Source of the DNA: Chitinophagaceae bacterium
GTDB taxonomy: Bacteria; Bacteroidota; Bacteroidia; Chitinophagales; Chitinophagaceae
Direction: 5' to 3'
DNA: 64,000 bases
Assembly: GCA_035628135.1 (NCBI GenBank)
Contig: DASPKM010000004.1
Span: 362,596 to 426,595, forward strand
A model generated the notes under the pieces. It saw only the letters and a list, made by a program, of their open reading frames with translations. It ran no database searches and was not told the DNA's origin. A program made the position numbers and the translations under genes. This document shows positions 679-35,486 of the stretch, one piece after another. Positions within the stretch are counted from its first letter, which is position 1. Each line of letters begins with the position of its first letter.

Positions 679-2421
679 TTATTGTCTGATCATCGCATCT
701 TCATTAAAGCTCATTAGCAGCCTGGAAGGGCTTGGCCTCTTGAGATCGTATTCTGCTCCTAAAAAAGCAATCTTTATTTTTCTTCCATCGGTGTACTTAA
801 ACATTATCGAATAATTCCTGACCTCATACGTACCCGAGCCGGGGGTAAGTCCGGGGTTTATGCAGTCGATATATTCATGATATAACACCTTTATTGCGCC
901 GTTATCAGTGAACTTTCCATCAGTTGTAAAAGTGATAGAGGGGATTTGTCCATTCAATTCGCTAAGGGCATACGTGCCGCTAAAGGTTGCACCATCCACA
1001 GATGGCAATGAATAAAATGCATGGTCTGTTTGGTTGGGCGTGATGATCAGCTTATCCTTTTCCATCCTCAGCGGAATATCTCCGTAAGGCATCTTTAAAA
1101 CTCCTCTTCCATTGCTGAACGTATAGGTACCCCAATCCCTCCGGTAGAGTTCGGCCGGAACCCGGCTATCAAATCCATCCAACCCTTCGGTAGGGAATTT
1201 GGGGCCAAAATAGGCCTGTCCATTAGAAAAGAACATGGGTGAAAAAACTTTATACCTCACCCCAAGCCGTTCGCCCTGGGTGGCGGGGCCAACCGATAAA
1301 GAAATACCCTGCCATACCCCAACAATACCACTGCCTTTGGTAATACCTGGCTGCAAGGCCGGTTGCCGTCCGTCTTTAAACTGTAGCGTGAATAAGAATT
1401 TTTCAATCGCGTAACCGTAAGCCCGGCGGTCAGTGGAATAATACCTGGAAAGCTTACAATTAGGCCTTGATTTCAGCACGGCTATCCGCTCGAAGCGGTT
1501 ATTTACTTTTATAACAAACAGGTCAAGTCCCAGTTCCGTCTTATAAGGTGTTCCATTCTCCACCTGCACGCCGCCTTTTGCCTGCATGTATTCCCATCCG
1601 TTGAATGATATTTTAGGTTCTGTTTTTTGGTAATTCGCTCCGCCGGCATAATACATCTTGGTTGCGTTGTACATGAGCGCCGCCTCATCATAGCTCTGCT
1701 TCACCGCTTGTTCCAGGGTGCCGGAAAAAATCAGGGGCTCCATTATTTGCATGGCCAAATGTTCTCCCGCAGGCAGGTCCAGGGGTTTAAATACAATGCC
1801 GTCCACGAATACCTGGTGGCTCCATCCAGCAGGCGCAGTATAGGCCATTAAGCGAAATTGCCCTTTAACTCCATTGGTTTGCGATAGCGCCCTGTCGTTA
1901 CTGCTGTTATCAGCGTGCAATTTTGCCGTTTTATCCAACTTCATGTTTTCAATCAAGGCGTCTACCTGGGCGGTATAGGATTGTTCATTCAGGCTGGTTC
2001 TTATACTGAATGTTTTCCCAAAACCACTGAAAACAGTTAAAATGATGTACACGTCTACGCCATCCATTTTTACCAGGGATGCGCCTACAACGGCTTTCCA
2101 TCCATCGGGAGTGGATTGTGTTTCTGTCTTCGGATCGGGCTCACCCTTGAACGGGACCACTACCAACTCGTTCCAGTCCTTTCTAAAATCTTTTTGCGGG
2201 TCGCCTGTGCTTGCAGTACTTGCATAAATGGCAATAACGCAAAAGCTTCCGCTGGAAGCATTCACATTGCTGTAGGTTATTACCCCGTTTCTCAGATCTT
2301 TTTTGAAACCCTTCGGGGGTGTATAAGTTATAATATCAAACGTTTCTGTTTGTGATATACAATTACTGCTGATAAGCATGAGCAGCAATAATTTTACAGT
2401 GCAGGCAATGAACTTATGCAT
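679..2421 (-). CDS. secreted hypothetical protein; paralog of 7172..8563
   Basis: N-terminal signal peptide MHKFIACTVKLLLLMLISSNCISQ. The first ~150 aa and the C-terminal motif align clearly with the product of 7172..8563 (e.g. TFDIITYTPPKGFKK / TYKFDIASFIPPKGWQR; SGFGKTFSIRTSL / SGFGKVMTIMVNL). Confidence 0.65.
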   Translation of the reverse strand: MHKFIACTVKLLLLMLISSNCISQTETFDIITYTPPKGFKKDLRNGVITYSNVNASSGSFCVIAIYASTASTGDPQKDFRKDWNELVVVPFKGEPDPKTETQSTPDGWKAVVGASLVKMDGVDVYIILTVFSGFGKTFSIRTSLNEQSYTAQVDALIENMKLDKTAKLHADNSSNDRALSQTNGVKGQFRLMAYTAPAGWSHQVFVDGIVFKPLDLPAGEHLAMQIMEPLIFSGTLEQAVKQSYDEAALMYNATKMYYAGGANYQKTEPKISFNGWEYMQAKGGVQVENGTPYKTELGLDLFVIKVNNRFERIAVLKSRPNCKLSRYYSTDRRAYGYAIEKFLFTLQFKDGRQPALQPGITKGSGIVGVWQGISLSVGPATQGERLGVRYKVFSPMFFSNGQAYFGPKFPTEGLDGFDSRVPAELYRRDWGTYTFSNGRGVLKMPYGDIPLRMEKDKLIITPNQTDHAFYSLPSVDGATFSGTYALSELNGQIPSITFTTDGKFTDNGAIKVLYHEYIDCINPGLTPGSGTYEVRNYSIMFKYTDGRKIKIAFLGAEYDLKRPSPSRLLMSFNEDAMIRQ

Positions 2422-2614
2422 AAAAGATGTTTAATTCTTATGAATAGTGATCTGGTATAATGGGGGCCAAATGTGGAAGAATGCCATTGACGTCGATCAC
2501 CGGAACCAGTGGGTTCTCTCAATTTCGGCAATAATATTCGAAACCGGGTATTTAAATTGTCTTACCCCTGGATAATCAGGTAGAAAAGCGAAGAACATCA
2601 CAGTCCGGCGGATT

Positions 2615-3337
2615 TTAAAACAAATGCCCGCCCAGCCGCTTCAGCACCTGTGACCTGTATAAACTGCCAATGGGCAATTCATGGTCCATTACCGTTACCT
2701 GGGTTTGTGAAAACTGTTTGATCCTTGCAACCGGCACTATAAAGCTCCTGTGTATCCTGATAAAATGCTGTGGAGATAATTTTTCTTCCATCTGGCTGAT
2801 GCTGAGCAGCGTAATAAAATTGCCATTGGAAGTAACAACCTTTATATGGTTGCGAAGGCTTTCGATATAAATTACTTCATCCACCAACACCTTTATGAAC
2901 TTCCGGTCGCTCTTGATGTAAAAGAAAGGCGGCTCGTCGGTTGGCGGCTCGGACGCTTGCAGGCCTGCGGACGACGGTATTGTTTTTTCAAGCCTGTACA
3001 CCTTGCCGATTGCTTTTAAAAACCGGTCGAACGAAACCGGCTTCAGCAGGTAATCAACCACATCGAGGTTGAAGCCTTCCAATGCAAATTCGCGGTGTGC
3101 CGTGGTAACGATAACATGCGGTTGCTTAGGGAGCATTTGCAGCATGCTTAGACCGGTCATCTTCGGCATTTGAATGTCCAGGAACAGCAGGTCGATATCG
3201 TTGTTCTGCATAGCCGAGAACGCGTCCATCGCATTGTAATAAACGCCCGCCACCTGCAGGTGTCCGATCCTGCTGATGTGATTTTCAATGACCTTAACGG
3301 CCATTTCTTCATCATCGACTATCAGGCACTTCATCAT
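2615..3337 (-). CDS. two-component response regulator, LytTR family
   Basis: N-terminal receiver domain (LIVDDE...DLLFLDIQMP) and C-terminal LytTR DNA-binding domain (FIRIHRSFIVPVARI). Confidence 0.9.
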   Translation of the reverse strand: MMKCLIVDDEEMAVKVIENHISRIGHLQVAGVYYNAMDAFSAMQNNDIDLLFLDIQMPKMTGLSMLQMLPKQPHVIVTTAHREFALEGFNLDVVDYLLKPVSFDRFLKAIGKVYRLEKTIPSSAGLQASEPPTDEPPFFYIKSDRKFIKVLVDEVIYIESLRNHIKVVTSNGNFITLLSISQMEEKLSPQHFIRIHRSFIVPVARIKQFSQTQVTVMDHELPIGSLYRSQVLKRLGGHLF

Positions 3338-15811: not shown

Positions 15812-15854
15812 ATCTGTTGTTTTTGCATTAATTTTCCGGCCGCCATTACACCCA

Positions 15855-15942
15855 GGAGAGATGCCAGAGCGGCTGAATGGGACGGTCTCGAAAACCGTTG
15901 TCCGGCTTGTCCGGACCGAGGGTTCGAATCCCTCTCTCTCCG
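15855..15942 (+). tRNA. tRNA-Ser(CGA)
   Basis: Cloverleaf with 7-bp acceptor GGAGAGA/TCTCTCC, anticodon arm ACGGT-CTCGAAA-ACCGT (anticodon CGA), long variable arm and T-arm GAGGG-TTCGAAT-CCCTC. Close to E. coli serU by eye. No encoded CCA. Confidence 0.85.
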
Positions 15943-15980
15943 CTTTTTGATGGTTTTGTTCACTTTTTCACGCTTTCTGT
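15943..15980 (+). repeat. R0: repeat tail directly following the tRNA-Ser 3' end (TTTTTGATGGTTTTGTTCACTTTTTCACGCTTTCTGT)
   Basis: Together with the tRNA 3' end this is the prototype of the downstream direct repeats. Confidence 0.6.
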
Positions 15981-16063
15981 ATTTTGGCAGACAGCCACTC
16001 ACTAATCTGTAATTCATACTTCTTCAGGAAATTCCTGATTTTCAACAAATCTGTTTCAAATAA

Positions 16064-16140
16064 ATTCGAATCCGTCCCATCACTTCGCCTTCGTTCGCCG
16101 AAGCTTTAACGTAGGCGAACTTGGCTCACAACAAGAGCTT
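16064..16140 (+). repeat. R1: tRNA-3'-end-like core (TTCGAATCCGTCCCATCACTTCGCC) with a B-type hairpin tail
   Basis: Core similar to the other copies. The tail carries the inverted repeat GTTCGCC...GGCGAAC. Confidence 0.55.
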
Positions 16141-16222
16141 TATTCCTCGGCCAGCAAATTTCGGCAGACGAAGTCCACTTAATAGATGGGAGAGCCCCGG
16201 ACCTCAATAGCTCATAAGGGGA

Positions 16223-16747
16223 TTATGATAGAAGCCATAATACTGCACTTAAAAATATACTGGCAAAAATTAGACCCAAATAGAAAACTGAAACTTCTTT
16301 GAATTTCATAGTCATCTTTTGAGAAACAAATTTTTTATATTCCAAATCCTTTCTGTATTGAAACCCTGTGGGATCTAGTACTTTAAAATTTGTAAACTTA
16401 TTACTTGCACAGTCAGTCGCAAATTCTTCGCTATTGAGATACTCAGCAATTTTTATTTGTCGATAAATTGACCTTCGCTGAAGCGTTCTAAAAAAGGAAT
16501 CCATATACCAAAAAAGCAGTGGAATAATTGAAGTCATTAGGATTATCGATGCACGTAACTCTTGCAAATCTTTACCCAAGGCTATAGAAATAACTCCCGC
16601 CCAAATCAAAATACTCCAATTTTTGCTTACCCTAGCAAAGTTGTCCATTCTGTCGATTATAGCATTAATGGTATTTAGTTCCCAAGTGATCAAGTCGACA
16701 TTATGCTCGAATGGATTGATATTATTATTCATTTGATTCATTCGCAA
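16223..16747 (-). CDS. cassette 1: hypothetical membrane protein (3 predicted TM helices)
   Basis: AT-rich ORF. Hydrophobic segments WSILIWAGVISIALG, IILMTSIIPLLFWYM and VFYLGLIFASIFLSAVLWLL. Confidence 0.5.
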   Translation of the reverse strand: MRMNQMNNNINPFEHNVDLITWELNTINAIIDRMDNFARVSKNWSILIWAGVISIALGKDLQELRASIILMTSIIPLLFWYMDSFFRTLQRRSIYRQIKIAEYLNSEEFATDCASNKFTNFKVLDPTGFQYRKDLEYKKFVSQKMTMKFKEVSVFYLGLIFASIFLSAVLWLLS

Positions 16748-16915
16748 TGTAACTAATCGACAATTAATCGGATTTACAAATCGTGAATAGGCAAAACGAA
16801 GGTATCAATTTATCAATGTGGTTTTTATTTATTTCTGAGCTTGGTTTAAATTGACAGTTATAGAAGATGCTACACTTGTTAGAATGCCACTGATTGTCAA
16901 TAAGTCTTTAACCAA

Positions 16916-16983
16916 AAAGTTCGAACTCCGTCCCCTCCACCCCGCTTTTTTGATGGTTTTGTTCGCTTTTTTACGCTTTCTGT
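16916..16983 (+). repeat. R2: AAAGTTCGAACTCCGTCCCCTCCACCCCGC plus A-type tail TTTTTTGATGGTTTTGTTCGCTTTTTTACGCTTTCTGT
   Basis: Near-identical to R0, R3 and R4. Confidence 0.65.
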
Positions 16984-17021
16984 TTGCGACGATAATCAGC
17001 TTCAATTCTGGCTAATCAGTA

Positions 17022-17600
17022 TCATTTCTGATAGTTCAATAATGTGTCGTTTCTATAATGTTCTTTTCTGATAGTATCGCCCGTTTCTGAGAAGTACAGC
17101 CAAATACTGTCCTTTACCCATTTGTCTGTTTCAGGGAAAGGAGAACCTTCACTTACGGTGTCATTGCTTTTATAAAACTCAATCTTTCTGAGTTTTGTGG
17201 TCCCGGTGAAATTATAGTAAGCTTCCTGGTAGCGATGATTGTTTACATTGAATTCATAGGTAGAAGACCTTGCATTACCCTGGCTAATCCGGGCAGCTAC
17301 TGTAAAAATAATTAGTGGAAGCAAGGGAGTTGCGGTCACCATCCCAATTTTGTCGGCAGTTGTTCTAACTTTAATGATTTTAGTCCGCCATAGAATAAAC
17401 TGTACGATTGGAAAGAGAACAAAAAGAAATATATACGCAAAGCCTATTCCTAATGATATACTTGGGTCTTGTTTTGCTTGTCCATATAAGTATAGCACAG
17501 TTCCATAGAAGACGATATTGAAAAGTAAAAGTGGAATATTCATGAGGAGTAATTGGTATCCCGAAATATAACGTAAGACGCGCTCTAAAAATACGCACAT
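17022..17600 (-). CDS. cassette 2: hypothetical membrane protein (3 TM) with a soluble C-terminal domain
   Basis: AT-rich ORF with three hydrophobic helices, then a hydrophilic ~80-aa tail. Confidence 0.5.
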   Translation of the reverse strand: MCVFLERVLRYISGYQLLLMNIPLLLFNIVFYGTVLYLYGQAKQDPSISLGIGFAYIFLFVLFPIVQFILWRTKIIKVRTTADKIGMVTATPLLPLIIFTVAARISQGNARSSTYEFNVNNHRYQEAYYNFTGTTKLRKIEFYKSNDTVSEGSPFPETDKWVKDSIWLYFSETGDTIRKEHYRNDTLLNYQK

Positions 17601-17640
17601 ATTGGTATAAAGGCCTTAACAATCAGCAAATCTTTCACCA

Positions 17641-17709
17641 AAAGTTCGAACTCTGTCTCCTCCACCCCGCTTGTTTGTTGATTTTGTTCACTTTTTGACG
17701 CTTTCTGTC
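17641..17709 (+). repeat. R3: AAAGTTCGAACTCTGTCTCCTCCACCCCGC plus A-type tail
   Basis: Direct repeat copy. Confidence 0.65.
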
Positions 17710-18010
17710 CTCTTGATCTACATTGATCAACTAATGTATAATTCTCGATGATAGCGATCGCATACTATGGGATGCACAGAACCCATGCATCACCAAGGAG
17801 GCTTAGATGATTTATGATTATGCGGGCAGGTTTTGTAGAAACTACTAACACAAATTACATTTTACAAATTCTTAAAACCGTAACTTCTTATAGAATGAAC
17901 AGGCTTGGGAAAAAGAATTAGGGTAGGGCGATAAACGGATTTGGATCGGTATAAAAGCTTTCATACACTCCAAAGCTACTGCACACGATTTGGCTGGTTT
18001 CGAAATGGTA

Positions 18011-18472
18011 TTAAAAAGAAAATCCGCCATTTTGGCGGATCGCTAAGAATGCTGAGTATTTCTTCCCCTTTTCATAAGGATGCCATTGGTCTCCAACCTG
18101 GCCCCAGAGGAAAAAATAATTTTCTATTTCTTCAAGATGCTTATTGATATTCATCTGATACCACCGGTGTTTTACTGCCGTATTACCTTTCACGAATATG
18201 GAAACATTCCAGTTAATGACTGTGAAAGTCCTGATAATGTTTCCGAGCGTATGTAAAACCTTTTCGGCGTCCCCATTATAGCTCAGCTTCGAATCATCAA
18301 TTTTTTGGGTTTTTTCGTCCCAGTCGCCAAATCCAAAATTATAAGTATCGTCAAATTGGTAGGTAAACTGTGCGGCCTTCGGAATCGTGCCTTTTGGGCC
18401 GGTGCTGACAAATTCAAAGAGAGTCACACTGGCTGAAACATTTTTTTTTGTATCATAACATTCGCCAACCAT
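18011..18472 (-). CDS. cassette 3: hypothetical soluble protein (contains an A9 tract at codons 8-10)
   Basis: AT-rich ORF with no recognisable domain. Confidence 0.45.
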   Translation of the reverse strand: MVGECYDTKKNVSASVTLFEFVSTGPKGTIPKAAQFTYQFDDTYNFGFGDWDEKTQKIDDSKLSYNGDAEKVLHTLGNIIRTFTVINWNVSIFVKGNTAVKHRWYQMNINKHLEEIENYFFLWGQVGDQWHPYEKGKKYSAFLAIRQNGGFSF

Positions 18473-18778
18473 AATAGATATTTATAATACTCCCTCAAAT
18501 TATGTTCCATTAATATCCTGGCAACTCGTTTACCTCGTCCCAGCCCTGCCATTTGATAGGCCTTCAGAGCATTCCCCACCTATTATAGAGTGGACAGATA
18601 CACTGCAAACCACAAGGGACTGAGATCACATTCAATAATTCGTTAGATCGGTTTATTTTTGGATTCAACACTCCCAAGGCTGCAGCTCTTAGCGGCTGCC
18701 AATACAGAAAGGTTGTAGGCTGTATAATTAATGCAACAAAGTGAAGAAGACACTGATTTTCAGTAGATCCCTTAAGCG

Positions 18779-18845
18779 AAAGTTCGAACTCTGTCCCCTA
18801 CACCCCGCTTTTTTGATGGTTTTCTTGGTCTTAATCACTTTCTGC
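18779..18845 (+). repeat. R4: AAAGTTCGAACTCTGTCCCCTACACCCCGC plus A-type tail
   Basis: Direct repeat copy. Confidence 0.65.
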
Positions 18846-18867
18846 CGCATTTGCCTTAGGCGACTAG

Positions 18868-19170
18868 TCATCTCGAGATATTGGTGCATATACCAAAAAT
18901 TGAATTCCGAGTCACCCATCCATTGATGCGGCCAACATTATTGCCAATTTGATACCTTTCTCCTTGAATTGCTTTTATAAGATGTAAATAATGGGTGCCA
19001 TTTACTTTGCACAACACTATATCATCTTTACGTAGTTGTCGATCGCGCAAGGGTTCAACCGTCACCAACTCGCCAGATTCTATTTTTCCTTTCATTGAAT
19101 TCCCTCTTGGACGGAATTGCACCGTTTCGCCTGCCTTCAACTTTTCAATATAATGTGCAGCCCAGCTCAT
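18868..19170 (-). CDS. cassette 4a: S24 (LexA/UmuD-like) peptidase-fold protein, about 100 aa
   Basis: GNSMKGKIESGELVTV and DIVLCKVNGTHYLHLIKA resemble the S24 Ser/Lys dyad region. Start placed at the internal ATG at 19170. Confidence 0.4.
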   Translation of the reverse strand: MSWAAHYIEKLKAGETVQFRPRGNSMKGKIESGELVTVEPLRDRQLRKDDIVLCKVNGTHYLHLIKAIQGERYQIGNNVGRINGWVTRNSIFGICTNISR

Positions 19171-19285
19171 TTTATTTATTCCCCAGGGTTTTTGTGAGCA
19201 TAACCCCAACAAATGTCTATGTTAAATTACAAACGGAACCTAAACATAACGATCGCGTTTTTACCACTTAAAGCGAAAACCCTTC

Positions 19286-19783
19286 TTAGCCATTTCTTTG
19301 TTTCATGTAGTTTAATAAGTCAAGGATATGCTGTTGTGTATGACTTTTGAAAATCAATTCAAAGTACCGAAGCCCATCAGCCACACTATTGTTTTCAATT
19401 CGCCACTTAATTTCTAGCAAGTCTCCAATAATGTCAGTTAAGTCATCAACTGCGTCGCCAATGCCACACTCTTTCAAATTGTAAATATCCTCGAAGTCCA
19501 GTGGAGTCTTGTAGAATCCAAAGTCTTTGAAGTTCGTTTCGACATTAGATCGGACGTTCGTCAAGTTCGATTTATCAAAGTCTGGATAGTCGGTATCATC
19601 AAACTGGTAGCTGATGTCAAAATAAAGGCTGTAAATTTTAACCAGACTGTGCTCCAACATTTTATCTCGGTTGGGCACACATAAACTTGGTTGTAGTCCA
19701 AATTTTACAATTTCCTGTATTGTCTCTAGTAGCTTCGTCATTTTCGTGTGGACTGATAACGCACTAACTCTAAAATAGCGCAA
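19286..19783 (-). CDS. cassette 4b: hypothetical acidic protein
   Basis: AT-rich ORF with no recognised domain. Alternative start at 19741. Confidence 0.45.
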   Translation of the reverse strand: MRYFRVSALSVHTKMTKLLETIQEIVKFGLQPSLCVPNRDKMLEHSLVKIYSLYFDISYQFDDTDYPDFDKSNLTNVRSNVETNFKDFGFYKTPLDFEDIYNLKECGIGDAVDDLTDIIGDLLEIKWRIENNSVADGLRYFELIFKSHTQQHILDLLNYMKQRNG

Positions 19784-19912
19784 ATAATAATAAATATTGC
19801 GATTCTGAATATGCGCAATTAAATTAAGATATAATAAACGCAGTAGATTGGCTTGGAAGGGGTTTTATAGGTGCCGTATAAATCCACTAATGATCTGCAA
19901 ATCGTTCAAAAC

Positions 19913-19972
19913 GAAGTTCGATATCTGTCCCTTGTAGCCCACTTTGTTTCAAAGTTTTACACACTTTCTGTC
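19913..19972 (+). repeat. R5: degenerate copy (GAAGTTCGATATCTGTCCCTTGTAGCCCAC plus TTTGTTTCAAAGTTTTACACACTTTCTGTC)
   Basis: Direct repeat copy, more diverged than the others. Confidence 0.5.
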
Positions 19973-20076
19973 TTTGGCTAACAGGGTTTGCAAGAATTTT
20001 ATAGACGAAGTGCTTTCGTTATTTGTTTAACCAACGCTGCAGTTTCTGCAATGCAGGGTCGGAACGTAACAAGCCT

Positions 20077-20703
20077 TTAGCCTGGGAACCTGGTATCAGC
20101 TATGATCCTCTTTAGCTGTTCAATATGCCTTATGCGATGGGCGACAAGGATCAACCCTAATTGATGACAATCTCTGATGGTACGGACCCCCTTGCCATCC
20201 ATTCTAAAAACAAAATACCGCCTTAGATCCTTAGAAGCATTTACGGTGAAAAATTCCTTTACCAGATCATTGGTTTCAGAAAAAATGCGTACACAGGCAT
20301 CCTTACTGCAGTACCGGTTCCTCGGTAAATTAGTTCCCCTTGCTTTGCCCTTTTCCGGTTGCGTCGCATATGCAAGCGCTTTCTCATCGCCTCCTTTTGT
20401 GGAGTCCGCATAACTTGCAGGAAAAACCGGCTGGGCCAGTGAAAACCACAATTCCCGTACATAACCTTCATCAATAAGCCCCAGGTGTTCAACAATATCA
20501 TTTGCTGACCATGTATTCGTATCAATCCGATAAAAGAATTGCGACTCCTTCAAGGTATTGACAACTCTCAACAACTCGTTATGTGTTGAATCAAGCAGCC
20601 TTAACATCTTTTTGTTGTCGGCATCTGTATAATGCCGCTTTGCCGGTTGGGCCCCCAACATAAAAGAACAGCTAAGAAAGAGAAAAAGTATAAGATATTT
20701 CAT
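20077..20703 (-). CDS. cassette 5: secreted DinB/YfiT-like (DinB_2) family protein
   Basis: Signal peptide MKYLILFLFLSCSFMLGAQP (internal start at 20703). His-containing helical bundle signature HLGLIDEGY...HRIRHIEQL. Confidence 0.6.
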   Translation of the reverse strand: MKYLILFLFLSCSFMLGAQPAKRHYTDADNKKMLRLLDSTHNELLRVVNTLKESQFFYRIDTNTWSANDIVEHLGLIDEGYVRELWFSLAQPVFPASYADSTKGGDEKALAYATQPEKGKARGTNLPRNRYCSKDACVRIFSETNDLVKEFFTVNASKDLRRYFVFRMDGKGVRTIRDCHQLGLILVAHRIRHIEQLKRIIADTRFPG

Positions 20704-20857
20704 TGTATTCACGGTTAATGTAACTAACGGCGCCGAACCTTTAATCTTCATCCAATGCACTAACCAAGGTAATAAAAATATCAATTCCCTTCTGCACTCA
20801 CAGATAACCAGTACCTATAAACAAACTGCTTTATTCTCAGTAAATCCTTCAAAAGGA

Positions 20858-20930
20858 AATTCGAACTCCGTCCCCTCCGCCCCGCTTTCACTCCCAGAAG
20901 ATTTAGCGTAGGCATGCTTTGCCTGGGCAA
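20858..20930 (+). repeat. R6: AAATTCGAACTCCGTCCCCTCCGCCCCGC plus B-type hairpin tail
   Basis: Core as in R2. The tail carries the inverted repeat CCCAG...GCATGC...CTGGG and resembles the R1 tail (TTAGCGTAGGC / TTAACGTAGGCGAAC). Confidence 0.55.
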
Positions 20931-20934
20931 CTTG

Positions 20935-21942
20935 TTAGTTTAGGACGAGCTCCATAATCTGGTGTCGCGCCTTTTTCGATTCAGGCAAATTCAGGAACAC
21001 CCAGGCATGTGCCATTCCTTCATATTCGTAATAGTTTATCTCCACGTTTTTGATACCGGCGAGATGTTTTAGTTTTCTTGCGTCTGAAACCAGTATATCT
21101 TTTGTTCCTGTAAAAACAGATATTTTTCCCAGGTTGTCAAGACACCCATTGATTGGGCTAAGCAAATAATGGGCAGGATCCGTATCTCCTGCATATAACC
21201 TTCCCATCTCCCTGAGTCCTTTTATTCCGAGGAAAGGTTCTATTCCATTTACGTGTTCAATCTCCGGATTGCCAAGCGTGATATCCAGCCATGGTGAAAT
21301 CAGGATGATCCGGGAAGGTTGTGGGAGATGTTCATGCTGTAATTTTTGCGCAAGTGCCAGTGCAAAGCCGCCACCCGATGAATCCCCCATAAAGACCATT
21401 CCGGCACGATCAACTTCAGAAGCCAGTTGCCGGTAAAGCTTATCCACCATATCAAATGAATCTTTGTAGGTATGATGCGGTGCAAATGGAAAATCGGGTG
21501 CAGTAACGATGCAGCCTGTTTTATTTACAAGCTCCGACAGGAACTTCCAGTGAAAGGTGAGGAAACTGCTGGCATAAGCCCCTCCATGCAGGTATAAGAC
21601 ATGCGTGCCGCTGGCCTTCCTGTTCTTTGAACTGAGCTCAAAAACGTTGCGGTTATTTAATGTAGATTTACGGATATGGCAATTCCGTCTCGCCACGGCA
21701 GAAGGTTCGGGGCTATTGAAGAAACTGAATTGACCAGATGCGAATTGCCTCCTGAGAAATTCCCTTCTGTTTACCAGCCCCAGCAGACGATTAAATAATT
21801 TGCTTTGTATACTTGGCACGGAATAAATTTGATATAGAGAATTGTGAAGAACAGCTAAAGGTACGCCAATAAAAACACTAATAGAAAATGGGATAATGCC
21901 TGTATAAACAAGGCATGCTTGTATCAGCAATGGATTTTTCAT
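20935..21942 (-). CDS. alpha/beta hydrolase (esterase/lipase, HSL-like)
   Basis: HGGAY oxyanion motif and a GDSSGG nucleophile elbow. Confidence 0.8.
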   Translation of the reverse strand: MKNPLLIQACLVYTGIIPFSISVFIGVPLAVLHNSLYQIYSVPSIQSKLFNRLLGLVNRREFLRRQFASGQFSFFNSPEPSAVARRNCHIRKSTLNNRNVFELSSKNRKASGTHVLYLHGGAYASSFLTFHWKFLSELVNKTGCIVTAPDFPFAPHHTYKDSFDMVDKLYRQLASEVDRAGMVFMGDSSGGGFALALAQKLQHEHLPQPSRIILISPWLDITLGNPEIEHVNGIEPFLGIKGLREMGRLYAGDTDPAHYLLSPINGCLDNLGKISVFTGTKDILVSDARKLKHLAGIKNVEINYYEYEGMAHAWVFLNLPESKKARHQIMELVLN

Positions 21943-23224
21943 GGCAGATAAAAACCAGGATATAAATGACTTCTGGCTGCGACTTGATAATGCCGCGAAA
22001 ATCTATCCTGCAATAAGGGATAAAGAACTGACGTCTGTTTTCAGGATATCAGTACAATTAAAGGAGAGAATAAAAGCAAAACAATTGCTGCAAGCGGTCC
22101 ATTCCCTCGAAGAAAGATTTCCGTATTATAAAGTAAAGCTGAAAGCCGGCTTTTTCTGGTACTATCTCGAACCCGCTGACCTGCCAATCCCAGTAATACC
22201 CGACAAGGAAATTCCGTGCAGGTCGTTTGGCAAACAGGAACTAATGTTCAGGGTGCTGGCAAAAGAAAGCAGTATCAGTGTTGAATTTTCACATATCCTT
22301 ACCGATGGGACCGGGGCCCTTGAATTTTTAAAATCGCTGCTTCTGGTTTATTTTGAAAAATGTCAACGCAATGTCCCAGCCACTGTTTCCCGTCATATTC
22401 CGGGAGAAACGCCGCAACCGGAAGAATACGAAGACGCCTATAAAAGATATTTTAAAAAAATTGCCGCCCGCCCCCCGAAAATCGCAAAAGCCTTTCACGT
22501 GCCATTTCGTTTGCGGGAGGTGCCTCGTTTCTCTGTATTGACAGTTGTCCTGCCGCTTGATGAAATGCTGAAGAAGGCAAAGGAATATGAAGTGAGCCTG
22601 ACAGAATATCTTACTGCGGTATATCTCCATTCCCTGCAGCAGGTTTATAATCAGCAATCATCGTTCCGGAAACATACGGCTAACAAGATACTGCGCATTG
22701 AAGTACCCGTAAATCTTCGCAGGCTATTCCCTTCGCGCACTATGCGGAATTTTTCACTGTATGTGATGCCGGGCATTGACCTGCGGCTGGGCCACTATAC
22801 CTTTGACGAGATCATAAAGTTTGTTTATCACCAGGTAAGGCTCGAAACCGATAAGAAACTTATCAGTAAAATGATCTCCCGTAATGTGAGTGGAGAAAAA
22901 AATCCGGCCGTAAAGAGCCTGCCGCTGTTTATCAAATCATTTTTTCTGTCGAAACTGTATGCAATTGGTACAAGGCAATACAGCGGCGTAGTAACCAATA
23001 TGGGGAAAATAGATATGGGTCCCGAAATAAACAATGTGATAAATAAATTTGTATTTATTCCGCCGCCGCCCAATAAAATATTGAGAGTAAACTGCGCTGT
23101 AGTGGGATTCGACGGTAAATTGGTACTGACCTTTGGAAACATTACCGTCAGTAAAGAAGTCGAAAGACAATTCCTGGTATTCCTGGCAGCACAGGGCGTA
23201 CCGGTAAAAATCATGAAGCAATAG
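21941..23224 (+). CDS. HxxxD-type acyltransferase (condensation/PapA5/alcohol-acetyltransferase-like)
   Basis: SHILTDGTG motif about 120 aa from the N-terminus, with the length typical of this superfamily. Its start overlaps the divergent hydrolase start (CATG). Confidence 0.55.
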   Translation: MADKNQDINDFWLRLDNAAKIYPAIRDKELTSVFRISVQLKERIKAKQLLQAVHSLEERFPYYKVKLKAGFFWYYLEPADLPIPVIPDKEIPCRSFGKQELMFRVLAKESSISVEFSHILTDGTGALEFLKSLLLVYFEKCQRNVPATVSRHIPGETPQPEEYEDAYKRYFKKIAARPPKIAKAFHVPFRLREVPRFSVLTVVLPLDEMLKKAKEYEVSLTEYLTAVYLHSLQQVYNQQSSFRKHTANKILRIEVPVNLRRLFPSRTMRNFSLYVMPGIDLRLGHYTFDEIIKFVYHQVRLETDKKLISKMISRNVSGEKNPAVKSLPLFIKSFFLSKLYAIGTRQYSGVVTNMGKIDMGPEINNVINKFVFIPPPPNKILRVNCAVVGFDGKLVLTFGNITVSKEVERQFLVFLAAQGVPVKIMKQ

Positions 23225-23239
23225 CAATATTGAACAATT

Positions 23240-23944
23240 ATGATCATTTGTAAAAATTGCGGTGTAGAACTGGAAGAGGGAATAGCAAATTGCCCTTTAT
23301 GCGGTCAATCAGCAGGCAGCGATGATACCAGTTTGTCGCAAATCCCTGTTCCAGAACAGAAATCTGTTTATGGACGGGAAATGACCCAGCCCCAGAAACA
23401 ATTCACCTGGGAAATAGTTTCTCTTATCCTTCTTTCCGGCGCCATTGCAACTTTTATTGTCGATTTTATTATCAGTCGCCGGATTACCTGGTCAGAGTTG
23501 CCTATGGCCATGAGCCTTACTATTTTTTCTTACATTTCATTATTTGCATTCTGGAGGCAACGGTTGGTTGTTCAAATGACCGGCGGGCTCATGCTATCTT
23601 CTTTATGTCTTGTTGTTCTTGATCTATTGATCGGTGGTATTCACTGGTCAACGCGCCTGGCGATACCGTTGCTTACGGCAACTACCATTGTATTAATGAT
23701 ATTGATCTTTGTTGTCCGTAATTCAAAGTACAAAGGGATCAACCTGATTGCCTGGATTTTTTTGGGTGCGGCAATTCTGTGCCTTTGTATTGATGGCGTT
23801 TTGTCTATTTATAAAACAGGTTCTTTTCACCTGTCATGGAGTATTATTGCAATAAGCTGTATCGTACCTGTTGTTTTAGTGCTTCTTTTTGCGCATTTCC
23901 GGTTGAAGAAAGGGCGGAGCTTAGAGAAAACCTTTCATGTTTGA
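23240..23944 (+). CDS. zinc-ribbon plus multi-pass membrane protein
   Basis: N-terminal CxxC...CxxC, followed by about five hydrophobic helices. Confidence 0.6.
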   Translation: MIICKNCGVELEEGIANCPLCGQSAGSDDTSLSQIPVPEQKSVYGREMTQPQKQFTWEIVSLILLSGAIATFIVDFIISRRITWSELPMAMSLTIFSYISLFAFWRQRLVVQMTGGLMLSSLCLVVLDLLIGGIHWSTRLAIPLLTATTIVLMILIFVVRNSKYKGINLIAWIFLGAAILCLCIDGVLSIYKTGSFHLSWSIIAISCIVPVVLVLLFAHFRLKKGRSLEKTFHV

Positions 23945-23950
23945 ATGTTT

Positions 23951-25141
23951 TTACACAAGCTGAAATTGCTTCTTACCAAAGGATTTCCCATTTATCTGAA
24001 TTTCTATTTCGTGCCGCCCGCGAAAAAGCTTCCGGGTAGTCATATGTTCGCGCAGCACATGTCGTTTTGTGAGCACAATACTTTCTCCTTTGGAAAGCGA
24101 TAGGTTCTTTAGCTTGAAGACCTTCTTGCTGTTGACTTTACCTGATTTATTTGGAAAGTACAGTATATAGTCGGCAATGATGTGCGCGTCTTCCTGCGCT
24201 TGTATTGTAAAAGAAAATTCCAATGTGTTATTCATCTTGACCTTTGCTGGTATCCTGAAGTTTAAGGCACGTATAGCTGCCTTACGCGAAACGCCCAACA
24301 GATCCATTGCTTTGGGGTTTCCATTTTTAATGAGTGTCCGCAAGCCATGGCGGACAATATAGTCCATTTCTTTCGGCGTTTGCTTTGCTGATCGTTTCCA
24401 TCGCATGAGCGTATCAATTGCCAAACCCGGGTCAATTTTTGAAATGTCGTTTATGTGATTTGCAACGGAACGGACAACGAACCTTGTTGAATCGAAAAAA
24501 AGATTGTCAAGTATCGGAATCGGAGCGGTTATAGGGATGTTTACTTTCTGCGACCACGGAAGCTTTGGACGCGTTCCTTCACTGCATAACCTACGGACAT
24601 GGTAATGCGCGTCTCTGCTCCATTTTAACAATGTCCTCAACGTTTCTTCGGGAAATGCGTTAATGAAATACCGGATAGCGTCCTCCGCCGAAAAACGCAT
24701 AGTCAGCTCGTAAAGTGCGTTAAGAGAAAGCGCCAGGTCATCTTGATTGCAGCCGTAGCGCGCAATATATTCCCCATACGGCGCATAGATGAAGTCACCG
24801 AAATCGTTGTCGGAGAGTTCAGGATTGTTTGGCGCGGGAAGCGATTGAAGTATCACATTCACTCCCTGCCCATAATCGCCGGGCAAGTATTGCTTCAAAC
24901 ATTGTGCAATCCAGTAAATCCTCGCCTTGAGTTCGAGTTCGGGAAATTTGGCGACAACTTCACGAATAAACCGGGTTTTTTGGAACGGAGGATATACGCG
25001 ATGTATTTCTCCTGCAATTTGCTCAACTTTTGCTGCATTGAACAGGAGATCTTTGAGTAAAACTTTCTCTGCCATGTAGTCAACTTTGTCTTTTGCAGGT
25101 TTGAACGCAGTGGTTACTCGGCATCTTTTAATTTTATCCAT
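23951..25141 (-). CDS. DNA alkylation repair protein (AlkC/AlkD HEAT-like repeat family) with C-terminal extra domain
   Basis: HEAT-like repeat signature of the DNA_alkylation family (WSRDAHYHVRRLCSEGTRPKLPW) plus a ~100-aa beta-rich C-terminal domain, as in AlkC. Confidence 0.65.
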   Translation of the reverse strand: MDKIKRCRVTTAFKPAKDKVDYMAEKVLLKDLLFNAAKVEQIAGEIHRVYPPFQKTRFIREVVAKFPELELKARIYWIAQCLKQYLPGDYGQGVNVILQSLPAPNNPELSDNDFGDFIYAPYGEYIARYGCNQDDLALSLNALYELTMRFSAEDAIRYFINAFPEETLRTLLKWSRDAHYHVRRLCSEGTRPKLPWSQKVNIPITAPIPILDNLFFDSTRFVVRSVANHINDISKIDPGLAIDTLMRWKRSAKQTPKEMDYIVRHGLRTLIKNGNPKAMDLLGVSRKAAIRALNFRIPAKVKMNNTLEFSFTIQAQEDAHIIADYILYFPNKSGKVNSKKVFKLKNLSLSKGESIVLTKRHVLREHMTTRKLFRGRHEIEIQINGKSFGKKQFQLV

Positions 25142-30333: not shown

Positions 30334-30409
30334 GGCCTGTTCGTCTAATGGTACAGGATACCACACTTTCGATGTGGGGATACGGGTTCGATTCCCGTAC
30401 AGGCTACCA
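30334..30409 (+). tRNA. tRNA-Glu(TTC)
   Basis: Acceptor GGCCTGT/ACAGGCT, anticodon arm CCACA-CTTTCGA-TGTGG, T-arm ACGGG-TTCGATT-CCCGT, encoded CCA. Confidence 0.8.
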
Positions 30410-30481
30410 GGTTCGTTGGTGTAATGGCTAACATAGCAGATTGTCGATCTGTTGACACGGGTTCGAATCCCGTACGAACCG
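30410..30481 (+). tRNA. tRNA-Asp(GTC)
   Basis: Acceptor GGTTCGT/ACGAACC, anticodon arm GCAGA-TTGTCGA-TCTGT, T-arm ACGGG-TTCGAAT-CCCGT. Confidence 0.8.
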
Positions 30482-30486
30482 CGCAC

Positions 30487-30558
30487 TGGTTTATAGTTCA
30501 ATGGACAGAACACCGCGCTACGAACGCGGAGATGAAAGTTCGATTCTTTCTAAACCAA
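30487..30558 (+). tRNA. tRNA-Arg(ACG)
   Basis: Acceptor TGGTTTA/TAAACCA (U1-A72), anticodon arm CCGCG-CTACGAA-CGCGG, T-arm GAAAG-TTCGATT-CTTTC. Confidence 0.7.
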
Positions 30559-30592
30559 CACCGCCAGCATTTGAAGGGATTGATATTCAGCA

Positions 30593-30664
30593 GATGATTT
30601 AGCTCAATGGTAGAGCAGCACCCTGATACGGTGCAGGTTGATAGTTCGAATCTATCAGTCATCA
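30593..30664 (+). tRNA. tRNA-Ile(GAT)
   Basis: Acceptor GATGATT/AGTCATC, anticodon arm GCACC-CTGATAC-GGTGC, T-arm GATAG-TTCGAAT-CTATC. Confidence 0.7.
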
Positions 30665-30665
30665 C

Positions 30666-30741
30666 TGGCTCGTAGCTCAATTGGCAGAGCTCCAGGTTTT
30701 TACCCTGGAGGTTGTGAGTTCGATCCTCACCGGGCCAACCA
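30666..30741 (+). tRNA. tRNA-Lys(TTT)
   Basis: Acceptor TGGCTCG/CGGGCCA, anticodon arm CCAGG-TTTTTAC-CCTGG, T-arm GTGAG-TTCGATC-CTCAC, encoded CCA. Confidence 0.75.
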
Positions 30742-30742
30742 T

Positions 30743-30815
30743 GGATGAATAGCTCAACTGGCAGAGCAACGGCTTGTTAAGCCGGAGGTTGAAAGTTCGA
30801 TTCTTTCTTCATCCG
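30743..30815 (+). tRNA. tRNA-Asn(GTT)
   Basis: Acceptor GGATGAA/TTCATCC, anticodon loop TTGTTAA, T-arm GAAAG-TTCGATT-CTTTC. Confidence 0.8.
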
Positions 30816-30949
30816 CCGTAGCATGACATTGACAATGTCATCACAAGAGCTTCCTCTTTTAAGGAAGGAACATGCCGTTGCATTCAAACCAGGCCTGTGC
30901 TTCAAAAAAGCATGGCAGTGCAGGAGTAGTAACTCCCTGTATGCTGTTG

Positions 30950-33215: not shown

Positions 33216-35486
33216 TTGTATATTGGAAAATGTATGGGACTTAAAGTGCACAGGGTGATATCGAGGCGCTTGCCTGAGCCGGGCTTAATGCCCGAGGACA
33301 CGCCGGAACTGCATGCGCTTGCACAGTATGTAAGGGCTGGCCGGTGCATTTTGTTCGTAGGCGCGGGACTGCCTTCAGGAGCGGGCCTTCCAACCTGGGT
33401 GGAATTGATGGAAAGGCTGGTGAAAAAGATCACCTGCTACGGTATTAATGAAGGCGTGGTACCCAATTATATCTCCCTCCCTGTTAGTGAAGAAGATGCC
33501 TGGAAAGACCCTGTGGTGGTTGCTGTACAAAAGGAACTAGGTAAAAAAACATTCGATCAATTGCTCAAGCAGATCCGTCGCACCACTGCCCTTACCTCGG
33601 AACCAGAGATCATCTTACTCGCATTGGAAATTGTGGGCCGCACTTCCATAGAACGCGCAGAGTTGATGCGGCTGCTGCAACAAAAGCGCTTTCCGGAGCT
33701 GGCCGAGTTTTGCCGCAACAGGTTGGGTAATGAACGGTTCAACCAGGAAATACGCAAGGCCCTGGTACCAAAATCCGGGTTGCCCGCGGCATTCCGCCAT
33801 ATTGTGCGCACGCCATTCGCGTGCATTGTAACCACTAATTTCGATACGTTGATCGAGCGAGCCTACGAACAATTCGGGCAAACGGGTATTCCACGCGCAC
33901 CCACGGGCGTTGAGCTTACACAGCTTGGCACGCTGCTGATAGATGATTCGTTTTTTGTATTGAAAGCGCATGGCGACGCGCTGCGTCCTGAAACGATGAT
34001 ATTTTCAGCGAACGATTACCGCCGCCTCATTCATGCCACGCCCGCATTCCAGGCATTCTTCAACAGCATGCTAATGACGCATGCATTGCTGTTTGTAGGT
34101 TATTCATTGAACGATGCCAACTTTCGCCTGTTATTGGACCAGCAGTTTACGATGTTCAACGGGCAGGTGCCGCCGCGCTATGCATTGCTAAGCGGTGTTG
34201 GCGCCGCGGAAGAAGATATTCTGTGGCAAACCGCCCGGCTACAGGTGCTCTCCTATCCCGATGGAAAGCACGAGCACGTAGAAAGATTTTTAGGAAGGCT
34301 TGCAAGGGTCACGAAACAACCAGGCGCCATCATTCCTTCGAAACCGGCGACGCCTTCGCCCAAAACAGGCATCATCAATACAGACGAAGCATCTACACTG
34401 TTCAACACCAGCATCCGCGATGGAAGGTTGTTGGTTGAACTCGTACGGCCTGCCAATTCTAAAACGCAGCCCACCACATGGGCCATGCAGGTAAGCCAAA
34501 AGGATTTTGAGGACTTTAAGTCATCGATCAAAGACGTGGTAAAAGCACACACGCAATATCACTCGGCCATGCCCGAAATAAATGCCATCAAAGAACATTT
34601 TTTGAAATTGTTTCCTGCGGAGCTGTTTCGAAAGCTGGCGGCATTGAAACCGGGCTCGCCCATTCGTTTTGTTTGCAGGCATGGAACGCACCGCATACCC
34701 TGGGAATGGTTGCCGGCGGCCAAAACACCGCTATGCCTGAGACATTCGGTTTCACGATGCCCCATCACATTAAGCGATACGGCGCGGGGCTACCGCATAC
34801 TCAACAAAAGGGTTCGCGCACTTATCATTGGCGACGCGGGCAGCGGCCAGCCGCCCCAACTCTGGCCCCTGGACGAGGCAGAACGCGAAGCGACAGAAAT
34901 AGTAAAGCGGCTGCGGAATAAATTATCTCCTAAAGGGGTTACGCATTTGTCGAGGAAAACCGCCACCAGGAACCGCATCCTGCGCGAATTGCGGGAAGGA
35001 GATTATGATATCATCCATTTTGCAGGACATGCATGGTTCACCAACCGTGAATCTTATCTATGGGCCTGGGACAATGTAATGCTGGGTTCTGAGCTAACGC
35101 CCATGCTTAGCCGCAGGCCTCCGTCGTTGCTGGTAATGAGCACGCATTTCACCAGCTTCGTGCCGCTGGGGATTAATGAAGACCTGATGGCGAAGCTGGC
35201 CGGCAAAACCACAGCGCTGCACGAAATAGAAGCTCAGCATTCGCTCGACTTTGCCGAAAACGCCATGCGTTGCGGCGTAGCTACTTTCGTGGGCTCATTC
35301 GGCGAGCCTCCGGAAAAGGACACGGCCGACACCATGATCGCTTTTTATGAAGGGTTGCTGGCAGGCGATTCCGTGGCCGGCTCGCTGCTGAAAGCAAGGA
35401 AGCGCCGTGTCCAGAAAGGATTCACGAGCAGCCTCCTTGTAACAGCCACAGGTTATGGCGATCTGCGGCTGGTGAATAAAAAATGA
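33216..35486 (+). CDS. SIR2-like (SIR2_2) NADase-type domain fused to a CHAT-like caspase-fold domain; candidate antiphage defence protein
   Basis: N-terminal SIR2_2 motifs: ILFVGAGLPSGAGLPTW, IVTTNFDTLIE, VLKAHGD, LLFVGYSLND. C-terminal CHAT-like motifs: ALIIGDAGSG, DIIHFAGHAWF, LLVMSTHF (His in place of the catalytic Cys), and the tail VATFVGSFG...MIAFYEGLLAGDSVAGSLLKARKR. Confidence 0.75.
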   Translation: MYIGKCMGLKVHRVISRRLPEPGLMPEDTPELHALAQYVRAGRCILFVGAGLPSGAGLPTWVELMERLVKKITCYGINEGVVPNYISLPVSEEDAWKDPVVVAVQKELGKKTFDQLLKQIRRTTALTSEPEIILLALEIVGRTSIERAELMRLLQQKRFPELAEFCRNRLGNERFNQEIRKALVPKSGLPAAFRHIVRTPFACIVTTNFDTLIERAYEQFGQTGIPRAPTGVELTQLGTLLIDDSFFVLKAHGDALRPETMIFSANDYRRLIHATPAFQAFFNSMLMTHALLFVGYSLNDANFRLLLDQQFTMFNGQVPPRYALLSGVGAAEEDILWQTARLQVLSYPDGKHEHVERFLGRLARVTKQPGAIIPSKPATPSPKTGIINTDEASTLFNTSIRDGRLLVELVRPANSKTQPTTWAMQVSQKDFEDFKSSIKDVVKAHTQYHSAMPEINAIKEHFLKLFPAELFRKLAALKPGSPIRFVCRHGTHRIPWEWLPAAKTPLCLRHSVSRCPITLSDTARGYRILNKRVRALIIGDAGSGQPPQLWPLDEAEREATEIVKRLRNKLSPKGVTHLSRKTATRNRILRELREGDYDIIHFAGHAWFTNRESYLWAWDNVMLGSELTPMLSRRPPSLLVMSTHFTSFVPLGINEDLMAKLAGKTTALHEIEAQHSLDFAENAMRCGVATFVGSFGEPPEKDTADTMIAFYEGLLAGDSVAGSLLKARKRRVQKGFTSSLLVTATGYGDLRLVNKK

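Follow-up and report, generated by a model that had tools for sequence, protein, structure and literature searches.

Tandem elements that lie between partial copies of a tRNA or tmRNA gene, including units without an integrase, have been described (10.1101/2020.12.28.424599, PMC3146451, PMC5704250). About half of the Dehalococcoides ssrA islands have no integration module; these have been interpreted as cis-mobilizable elements (CIMEs) that move with help given either in cis or in trans (PMC3146451, PMC5704250); the concept of CIME accretion has been reviewed (PMC5704250). Tycheposon islands likewise consist of tandem elements split by partial tRNA copies, and are read as the product of serial integration that pushes older elements inward (10.1101/2020.12.28.424599). 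The rAID-1 arrays of Bacteroidales are runs of short, co-oriented genes of low GC content, in which intergenic motifs recur in a way 'reminiscent of integrons', with an XerD-like recombinase directly 5′ (10.1101/471110; PMC12247911). How rAID arrays grow is stated to be an open question (PMC12247911). Here, we analyse an array of small, repeat-bounded gene cassettes next to a tRNA-Ser(CGA) gene in a 64,000-nucleotide stretch of a soil Chitinophagaceae bacterium (GenBank assembly GCA_035628135.1, contig DASPKM010000004.1, positions 362,596 to 426,595), referred to as the window; coordinates are counted from its first letter. An earlier sequence-only reading of this DNA had held such an architecture to be undescribed, a claim that does not survive comparison with tycheposon islands, Dehalococcoides ssrA islands, CIME accretion and rAID-1 arrays. 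What is unusual here is the single-gene scale (0.7–1.9 kb), the complete lack of mobility genes and a conserved pseudo-tRNA core that is unlike the anchor tRNA. The array is non-random, and the reading that fits it best is tRNA-anchored tandem integration in a miniature form that lacks a recombinase.

Downstream of the tRNA lie six related repeats, with cores near 16064, 16916, 17641, 18779, 19913 and 20858 (Table 1). Each repeat is about 120 nt long and has three parts: a weakly conserved left arm of about 40 nt, a 27-nt core (GTTCGAACTCCGTCCCCTCCACCCCGC) and a tail, which is either A-type or B-type. The left arm follows the pattern ..TCAGYAAATC..12 nt..AAAGTTCGAAC, in which TCAGYAAATC is conserved and is followed about 12 nt on by AAAG; it is not present in the tRNA. 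A-type tails are found after the tRNA itself and in R2–R5, while B-type tails, with the sequence TTA(A/G)CGTAGGC, are found in R1 and R6. The R2 tail and the tail that follows the tRNA share 95% identity, and in the attB-like segment the T-tracts of the A-type tail lie about 10–11 nt apart. A scan of the window with the core pattern TTCGAACTCYGTCCCCTCCACCCCGC gave 4 matches at no more than one mismatch, against 0.00 expected. A profile hidden Markov model of the whole unit (nhmmer) recovered all six repeats with E-values of 1e-18 to 4e-28, and no further copy in the 64-kb window outside the array. The tRNA-Ser(CGA), on which ARAGORN and Rfam agree with an end at 15943, the six repeat positions and the two tail types are thus all as the sequence-only reading had them.

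The repeat is rare. Among 185,579 species genomes, the core pattern had one match, in another Chitinophagaceae metagenome-assembled genome (MAG; L001); in JGI metagenome contigs, it was found only in the same organism (L011), and neither the core pattern nor the A-tail and B-tail patterns had a match in viral contigs. A dispersed repeat of the repetitive extragenic palindrome or miniature inverted-repeat transposable element kind, which the sequence-only reading had named as the finding that would tell against it, is ruled out for the 64 kb and the public collections scanned by this rarity and by the zero copies outside the array.

The core can be parsed as TTCGAAC-TCCGT-CCCCTCC-A-CC, that is, as the T-loop, T-stem strand, acceptor strand, A73 and CC of a tRNA. 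The repeats had been taken as duplicates of the 3′ end of the adjacent tRNA. The core is not such a duplicate, because it is unable to pair with the 5′ GGAGAGA of tRNA-Ser(CGA), whose own end is about 5 nt shorter; moreover, the crossover maps 3′ of the core. Core and tRNA have only GTTCGAA and CCGC in common, and what is truly common to the repeats and the tRNA locus is only CCGC plus the A-type tail. A tRNA matching the pseudo-core would show the 3′ end ..CCCCTCCA, and we take the core to be more like a Tyr-type than a Ser-type 3′ end. Rfam, at E ≤ 1, called a tRNA at none of the repeats, the only match being tRNA-Ser itself.

The core is constrained. Its identity is 85–96% among R2, R3, R4, R6, L001 and L012, a farmland-soil contig from a related species, whereas the left arm is only 50–69% identical and orthologous coding DNA of the window and L012 is 68–74% identical. 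Conservation of the core above that of coding DNA indicates that it either is a putative protein-binding site kept by selection or has spread recently from species to species. The cores of R1 and R5 are degenerate, with 41–74% identity to the other copies, and so some of the sites are probably dead.

The clearest view of the integration event comes from L012. The cytochrome c peroxidase (CCP) encoded on this contig is 76% identical to that of the window, and the synteny is the same (DUF6265-CCP-SnoaL-tRNA-Ser(CGA)). After the L012 tRNA come, in order, an A-type tail, a 1.9-kb unit, a left arm, the core TTCGAACTCCGTCCCCTACACCCCGC, an A tail and then sequence orthologous to the window, in which the tail extension ATTTTGG.., the 50-nt spacer and the start of R1 can be aligned. 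The sequence orthologous to that directly 3′ of the window's tRNA, which includes the attB-like segment, is therefore placed by the alignment to the right of the L012 repeat. The 1.9-kb insertion is flush with the CCGC of the tRNA and is missing in the window, which instead has units 1–5 after the ancestral R1. By this alignment, the window and L012 are a clean insertion versus empty-site pair. The short Unit 0 is ancestral, as it is common to both. At the distal repeat of L012, it is the pseudo-core that is retained and not a displaced tRNA end, and the tail is native from about nucleotide 20, which places the exchange between CCGC and about the 20th tail nucleotide. A crossover in the T-loop, with the repeats as copies of the tRNA 3′ end, is excluded by the attR of L012, which keeps the pseudo-core, and by the mismatch between core and tRNA. 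The L012 cassette carries no cargo but a single gene, phage tail-sheath-like and coded on the opposite strand (1692–3002; PF04984; PHROG tail sheath, 7e-57); the 7.5-kb contig holds no other tail or injection-system genes.

The layout in L001 is the same: the start of an opposite-strand gene, about 190 nt, left arm, core and B-type tail. ARAGORN also reports a 'tRNA-Stop(tta)' pseudo-tRNA in L001 (1295–1367, + strand), on the strand opposite to the repeat and about 250 nt past the B-type tail. A pseudo-tRNA is likewise carried by the Dehalococcoides ssrA islands (PMC3146451).

Two more distant relatives (L016 and L021; CCP 73%) have neither the tRNA nor the array at this locus. In both, SnoaL is directly followed by the ortholog of window 23951–25141 (72% amino acid identity in L021), such that the window has about 8.1 kb extra (15812–23950). 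This extra DNA includes the block beyond R6 (Table 1), possibly an older portion of the variable region, which may extend past the coordinates of the sequence-only reading. The hydrolase at its start is annotated publicly as 171 aa, against 335 aa for the open reading frame (ORF), in which Abhydrolase_3 covers residues 115–315. The right flank of L012 is unrelated to the window or to L016 and L021. The locus differs among three relatives, making the tRNA-Ser locus a hotspot of gene-content change. Further loci reached through CCP and SnoaL homologues (L013–L015, L017, L020) were not syntenic, leaving only L012 informative.

Variation was also seen within the organism. The MAG of the window corresponds to ENA ERZ27257312 (a 431-kb contig), and three other assemblies of the same organism match the window wherever they overlap it. 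The exception, L004 (ERZ27252495), follows the window at 100% identity for 8,937 nt, ending with the last C of the R2 core (16945); the next 402 nt have no counterpart in the window. In the L004 sample, unit 2 is found alone on a 783-nt contig (L010). The join in L004 is either a real alternative junction or a chimera formed via a second, identical unit 1 plus repeat, and both point to the end of the core as an exchange point. Cassette-level variation bounded exactly by the repeats, which the sequence-only reading had predicted, is thus seen both in a related species and in the same organism. A break of Logan contigs at the tRNA end (L003/L009) was set aside as evidence of variation, the conserved tRNA 30-mer explaining it equally well. 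The 402 nt of L004 (1–402, reverse strand) start with a 16/15-nt inverted repeat (AAAAGAAAACAAACAC ... GTGTTGTTTTCTTTT) around about 100 nt, and about 150 nt in they contain a degenerate tRNA-Ser 3′ end, AATCCCTAACTCTCCGCTTTTT, identical to the tRNA at 20 of 22 nt.

All of the junctions coincide. To the left there is either the tRNA or a left arm and core, to the right an A tail, a B tail or the unrelated 'C' sequence of L004, and the switch always falls immediately after CCGC. We favour, with a probability of roughly 0.6, an explanation in which recombinase-less micro-cassettes were added by serial site-specific integration ('accretion') into an att site that overlaps the 3′ end of the tRNA, with the catalysing enzyme acting in trans. 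The proposed steps are as follows. The integration site would start at the last four bases of the tRNA (CCGC), with the exchange within roughly the next 20 nt. A unit would run from a tail through one or two accessory genes of AT-rich sequence to a left arm and the 27-nt pseudo-tRNA core, and when circularised it would carry a complete attP-like site of left arm, core, CCGC and tail. The circular unit would then recombine either with the attB-like tRNA-CCGC-tail or with an existing core-CCGC-tail site. Each event would leave an attP-like hybrid between neighbours and move older units outward. Such accretion would account for the order of left arms and tails, for the terminal site, a core joined to a B-type tail, next to the flank, and for a B-tailed unit 1 adjoining R1. 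The enzyme would be supplied from elsewhere in the genome or by a co-resident element, and is probably a tyrosine integrase; a serine recombinase is less likely. The tyrosine class has a precedent in the phylum in IntN2, the integrase of NBU2, which targets tRNA-Ser 3′ ends in Bacteroides (PMC8816746). A serine recombinase is used in the Dehalococcoides ssrA islands (PMC3146451). The units would on this basis be very small cis-mobilizable elements, and the array would be integron-like in behaviour without being an integron. The two possibilities offered by the sequence-only reading, a cassette-capture system served in trans and the scars of serial integrations, are the same process seen at different time scales.

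A more far-reaching version of this proposal is a gene-capture platform of Chitinophagaceae that is integron-like but built on other principles. Single-gene cassettes with their expression signals, a core and a tail like the flank of tRNA-Ser(CGA) would be inserted and excised at the tRNA end and at cassette junctions by a dedicated recombinase encoded elsewhere, and would circulate between species. We regard this version as tentative, and rather doubtful in full.

Several observations weigh against accretion by a trans-acting recombinase. Pfam and profile scans of the 64-kb window found no integrase, transposase or relaxase family among the families listed (25 of 71 in one of these scans), in keeping with the sequence-only reading, so that the enzyme invoked was not found within the 64 kb that the search covered. 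No integrase-bearing relative of the units was found in the public collections scanned, and neither a circular junction nor an excision product was seen. The degenerate R1 and R5 imply that at least part of the array is fossil. The L004 junction is possibly an assembly chimera, although a chimera would need a second cassette 1 and repeat. The repeat is known in only three organisms, which makes for thin statistics. A homologue of the cassette 3 gene in L018 (73%) is not flanked by the repeat, with DNA homology ending at the ends of the coding sequence, and a second homologue in L019 (50%) is not repeat-flanked either. Finally, the origin of the B-type tails is not explained by the model.

The array shares features with each of the known systems. 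Streptococcus ICESt1/ICESt3-type islands and Dehalococcoides ssrA islands have, like the array, an RNA gene as anchor and downstream units bounded by att direct repeats; here, CCGC and the A tail recur after the tRNA and in R2–R5. The ssrA and CIME islands also have extra conserved bases upstream of the repeat that do not align with the RNA gene, as does the array. However, the units of these islands are several kb to tens of kb long and multi-gene, many still with integrases, whereas those of the array measure 0.7–1.1 kb (in L012, 1.9 kb), hold no more than two genes each and have no integrase. In addition, the 27-nt pseudo-tRNA core is not derived from the anchoring tRNA, and none of the repeats is a true partial copy of that tRNA. 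Tycheposons resemble the array in lying beside tRNA genes, with adjacent elements split by partial tRNAs and further partial tRNAs scattered, but have a tyrosine recombinase, replication genes and true partial tRNA copies, none of which is found in the array units. NBU2 with IntN2 matches the enzyme proposed for the array, being a case of a Bacteroidota tyrosine integrase with a tRNA-Ser 3′ end as attB. NBU2 itself, a mobilizable element, is about 11 kb in size and brings its own integrase gene. Small gene modules moved in trans are known from the pdif modules of Acinetobacter plasmids, which lie between sites acted on by the host XerC/XerD; these sites are dif-like inverted repeats of 28 bp, carried on plasmids and not anchored at a tRNA, and the array core is presumably not dif-like.

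Integron cassettes and integrase-less cassette arrays (CALINs) are, like the units here, single-gene and uniformly oriented, with a site at the unit end and no recombinase per unit, and a classical CALIN would explain the repeat-ORF-repeat layout and common orientation of the array. Integron attC sites, though, are imperfect palindromes recombined by IntI as folded single strands, and the A-type units fold no better than shuffled sequences on both strands (z = −0.12, 0.59, 0.06 and 0.85), in line with the view of the sequence-only reading that the repeats are not attC-like. They lack the R″/L″–L′/R′ inverted repeats, are conserved in sequence and not in structure, and are modelled on a tRNA att site, and no IntI or other Phage_integrase-type family was found among the families listed for the window. 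The absence of folding refutes the attC interpretation, and a CALIN is extremely improbable. Structure is confined to the B-type tails of R1 and R6, which form a hairpin that takes in the core end (z = −2.8 and −2.5 respectively) and whose stem shows a compensatory change, CGTT/AACG in R1 versus CGCT/AGCG in L001. The array might alternatively be of the rAID type, with an XerD-like recombinase outside the window. It comes from the same phylum, its genes are co-oriented, encode 100–208 codons, and have a GC content of 0.36–0.42 with a conserved intergenic repeat (10.1101/471110; PMC12247911), and the family of cassette 4b has a B. fragilis structural homologue. The rAID-1 definition of at least two co-oriented downstream genes with GC of at most 41% describes the array, unit 5 (0.42) lying just above it. 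Against this, the defining 5′ recombinase position is occupied by the Abhydrolase_3 hydrolase, the scans of the 64 kb found no recombinase and no cargo matches an immunity family (Imm/SUKH families were absent from the cargo, whose Pfam matches are DUF6934, S24, DinB_2 and DUF5063-related). The organism belongs to Chitinophagales and not Bacteroidales, and a tRNA anchor is not described for rAID. On this comparison, which covered layout and cargo, we consider a rAID-type system quite unlikely.

It could also be that the array is an immobile fossil, in which once-autonomous, integrase-bearing islands at this tRNA have each decayed to a single gene. Tandem decayed elements are the usual account of such arrays (PMC5704250; 10.1101/2020.12.28.424599), R1 and R5 are degenerate, and Unit 0 with R1 is older than the split from L012. 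Yet decay would require five independent deletions, each sparing exactly one intact gene and both att halves. The ORFs nearly fill the units, with non-coding spacers of at most 340 nt and no integrase fragment, and the units keep both att sites while lacking integration or transfer genes. The L012 unit is single-gene as well, the core is 85–96% identical across species, above coding DNA, and L004 suggests present-day variation. Because the spacers are so short and five independent decays are unlikely, recombinase-less micro-cassettes are favoured, and the fossil account is unlikely. That the repeats are not recombinase sites at all, serving instead as portable homology for homologous recombination or as a shared upstream regulatory element, is very unlikely. 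A left arm and core do lie upstream of every cargo ORF in the orientation of the gene, and 120-nt repeats could support RecA-dependent exchange. But the start codons lie anywhere between 70 and 336 nt away, no Rfam family was found at the repeats, and neither promoter-like sites (16 in the array region versus 14.0 expected from shuffles) nor terminator-like sites (4 versus 4.5) were enriched. L004 diverges abruptly where the core ends, and no homology flanks the break. Moreover, the identity of the tail with the tRNA's own downstream flank and the L012 insertion flush with the tRNA end would be left unexplained.

Table 1. Coordinates of the tRNA anchor, repeats, cargo genes and adjacent block in the window.
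Feature	Position	Strand	Support or remark
tRNA-Ser(CGA), intact, array anchor	15855..15943	+	ARAGORN; Rfam RF00005 tRNA 55 bits; orthologous tRNA in L012
attB-like segment: last 4 nt of the tRNA (CCGC), A-type tail and extension ATTTTGGCAGACAGCC	15940..15996	+	
Unit 0, 145-nt 'empty' unit: A tail, 50 nt, degenerate left arm and core	15944..16088	+	
R1: left arm, degenerate core ATTCGAATCCGTCCCATCACTTCGC, B-type hairpin tail	16026..16133	+	nhmmer E 1.4e-18
Cassette 1 cargo, 169-aa membrane protein	16223..16732	−	weak PADLOC match PDC-M50A, 1.3e-9
R2: left arm, 27-nt core (16919–16945), A tail	16881..16994	+	
Cassette 2 cargo, 192-aa membrane protein, no family match (Pfam)	17022..17600	−	
R3: left arm, core, A tail	17606..17717	+	
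Cassette 3 cargo, DUF6934 protein	18011..18472	−	Pfam 7.7e-40; hairpin+T terminator 18041..18021
R4: left arm, core, A tail	18744..18853	+	
Cassette 4 cargo a, 100-aa protein, S24-peptidase-like domain only	18868..19170	−	
Cassette 4 cargo b, 151-aa acidic helical protein, DUF5063-related family	19286..19741	−	
R5: degenerate, core GTTCGATATCTGTCCCTTGTAGCCCAC, diverged A tail	19878..19996	+	core 63–74% identical to good cores
Cassette 5 cargo, DinB_2 protein, signal-peptide-like N-terminus	20077..20703	−	Pfam
R6: left arm, core, B-type hairpin tail, abuts stop codon of hydrolase gene	20821..20929	+	
Block absent at this position in L021/L016: Abhydrolase_3 hydrolase, AATase-like, DUF6320 protein	20935..23944	.	

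Measured from junction to junction, starting at the base after CCGC, the units are 145, 857, 725, 1138, 1134 and 943 nt long. Their GC content is 0.36–0.40, with 0.42 for unit 5, compared to 0.46 for the flanks. The sequence-only reading is upheld in its five AT-rich units (measured here at 0.7–1.1 kb, GC 0.36–0.42), in the minus-strand coding of all the cargo (six co-oriented genes) and in its Pfam assignments. Its distance of 40–100 nt between ORF and repeat has to be widened to about 13 to 340 nt. Its description of the array as packed without promoters fails for cassette 3 and so does not apply to every unit: with 279 nt ahead of its ORF and a hairpin+T terminator to itself, this cassette at least is its own transcription unit. 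There was no exact match to the Bacteroidetes −7 motif TAnnTTTG upstream of the cargo genes.

The DUF6934 protein of cassette 3 (pLDDT 82) had no match in the PDB and thus no solved structural relative. For cassette 4a, the S24 assignment comes from a PF00717 match (9.6e-6) to the 114-aa ORF at 18868–19212 and from a PHROG CI-like repressor match (1.2e-4). The protein of cassette 4b has 370 homologue clusters, and DUF5063 was matched in 17 of 40 members; its model (pLDDT 95) has a sole match, to 3NRH, the uncharacterised B. fragilis protein BF1032, at a TM score of 0.70.

Three other regions of the window stand out. A single ORF of 6135 aa (45569–63976, − strand) encodes a non-ribosomal peptide synthetase with five sets of Condensation, AMP-binding and PP-binding domains in its first 4892 aa. 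It has genes for a CmlA-type beta-hydroxylase, a TauD dioxygenase and a radical SAM protein as neighbours, and the region looks like a biosynthetic gene cluster. At 30334–30817 (+ strand), there are six tRNA genes (Glu, Asp, Arg, Ile, Lys and Asn) with spacers of 0–33 nt, two pairs of which abut. Only two of the six have a CCA end, and the cluster looks unusual for a chromosome. About 2.4 kb from it, a gene at 33216–35486 (+ strand) encodes a 756-aa protein with SIR2_2 and CHAT protease domains, a defence-like architecture.

Should the array be no more than a fossil, it is an ordinary tRNA island, only a small one. If its units move singly, no smaller class of tRNA-targeted integrative cargo would be known. 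Accretion by a trans-acting enzyme would then amount to a second route to integron-like shuffling, with linear, sequence-conserved att sites in place of folded attC, and could bear on the growth of rAID-type arrays in Bacteroidota. The 27-nt core would in that case be a simple marker for hidden accessory-gene hotspots in soil Bacteroidota.

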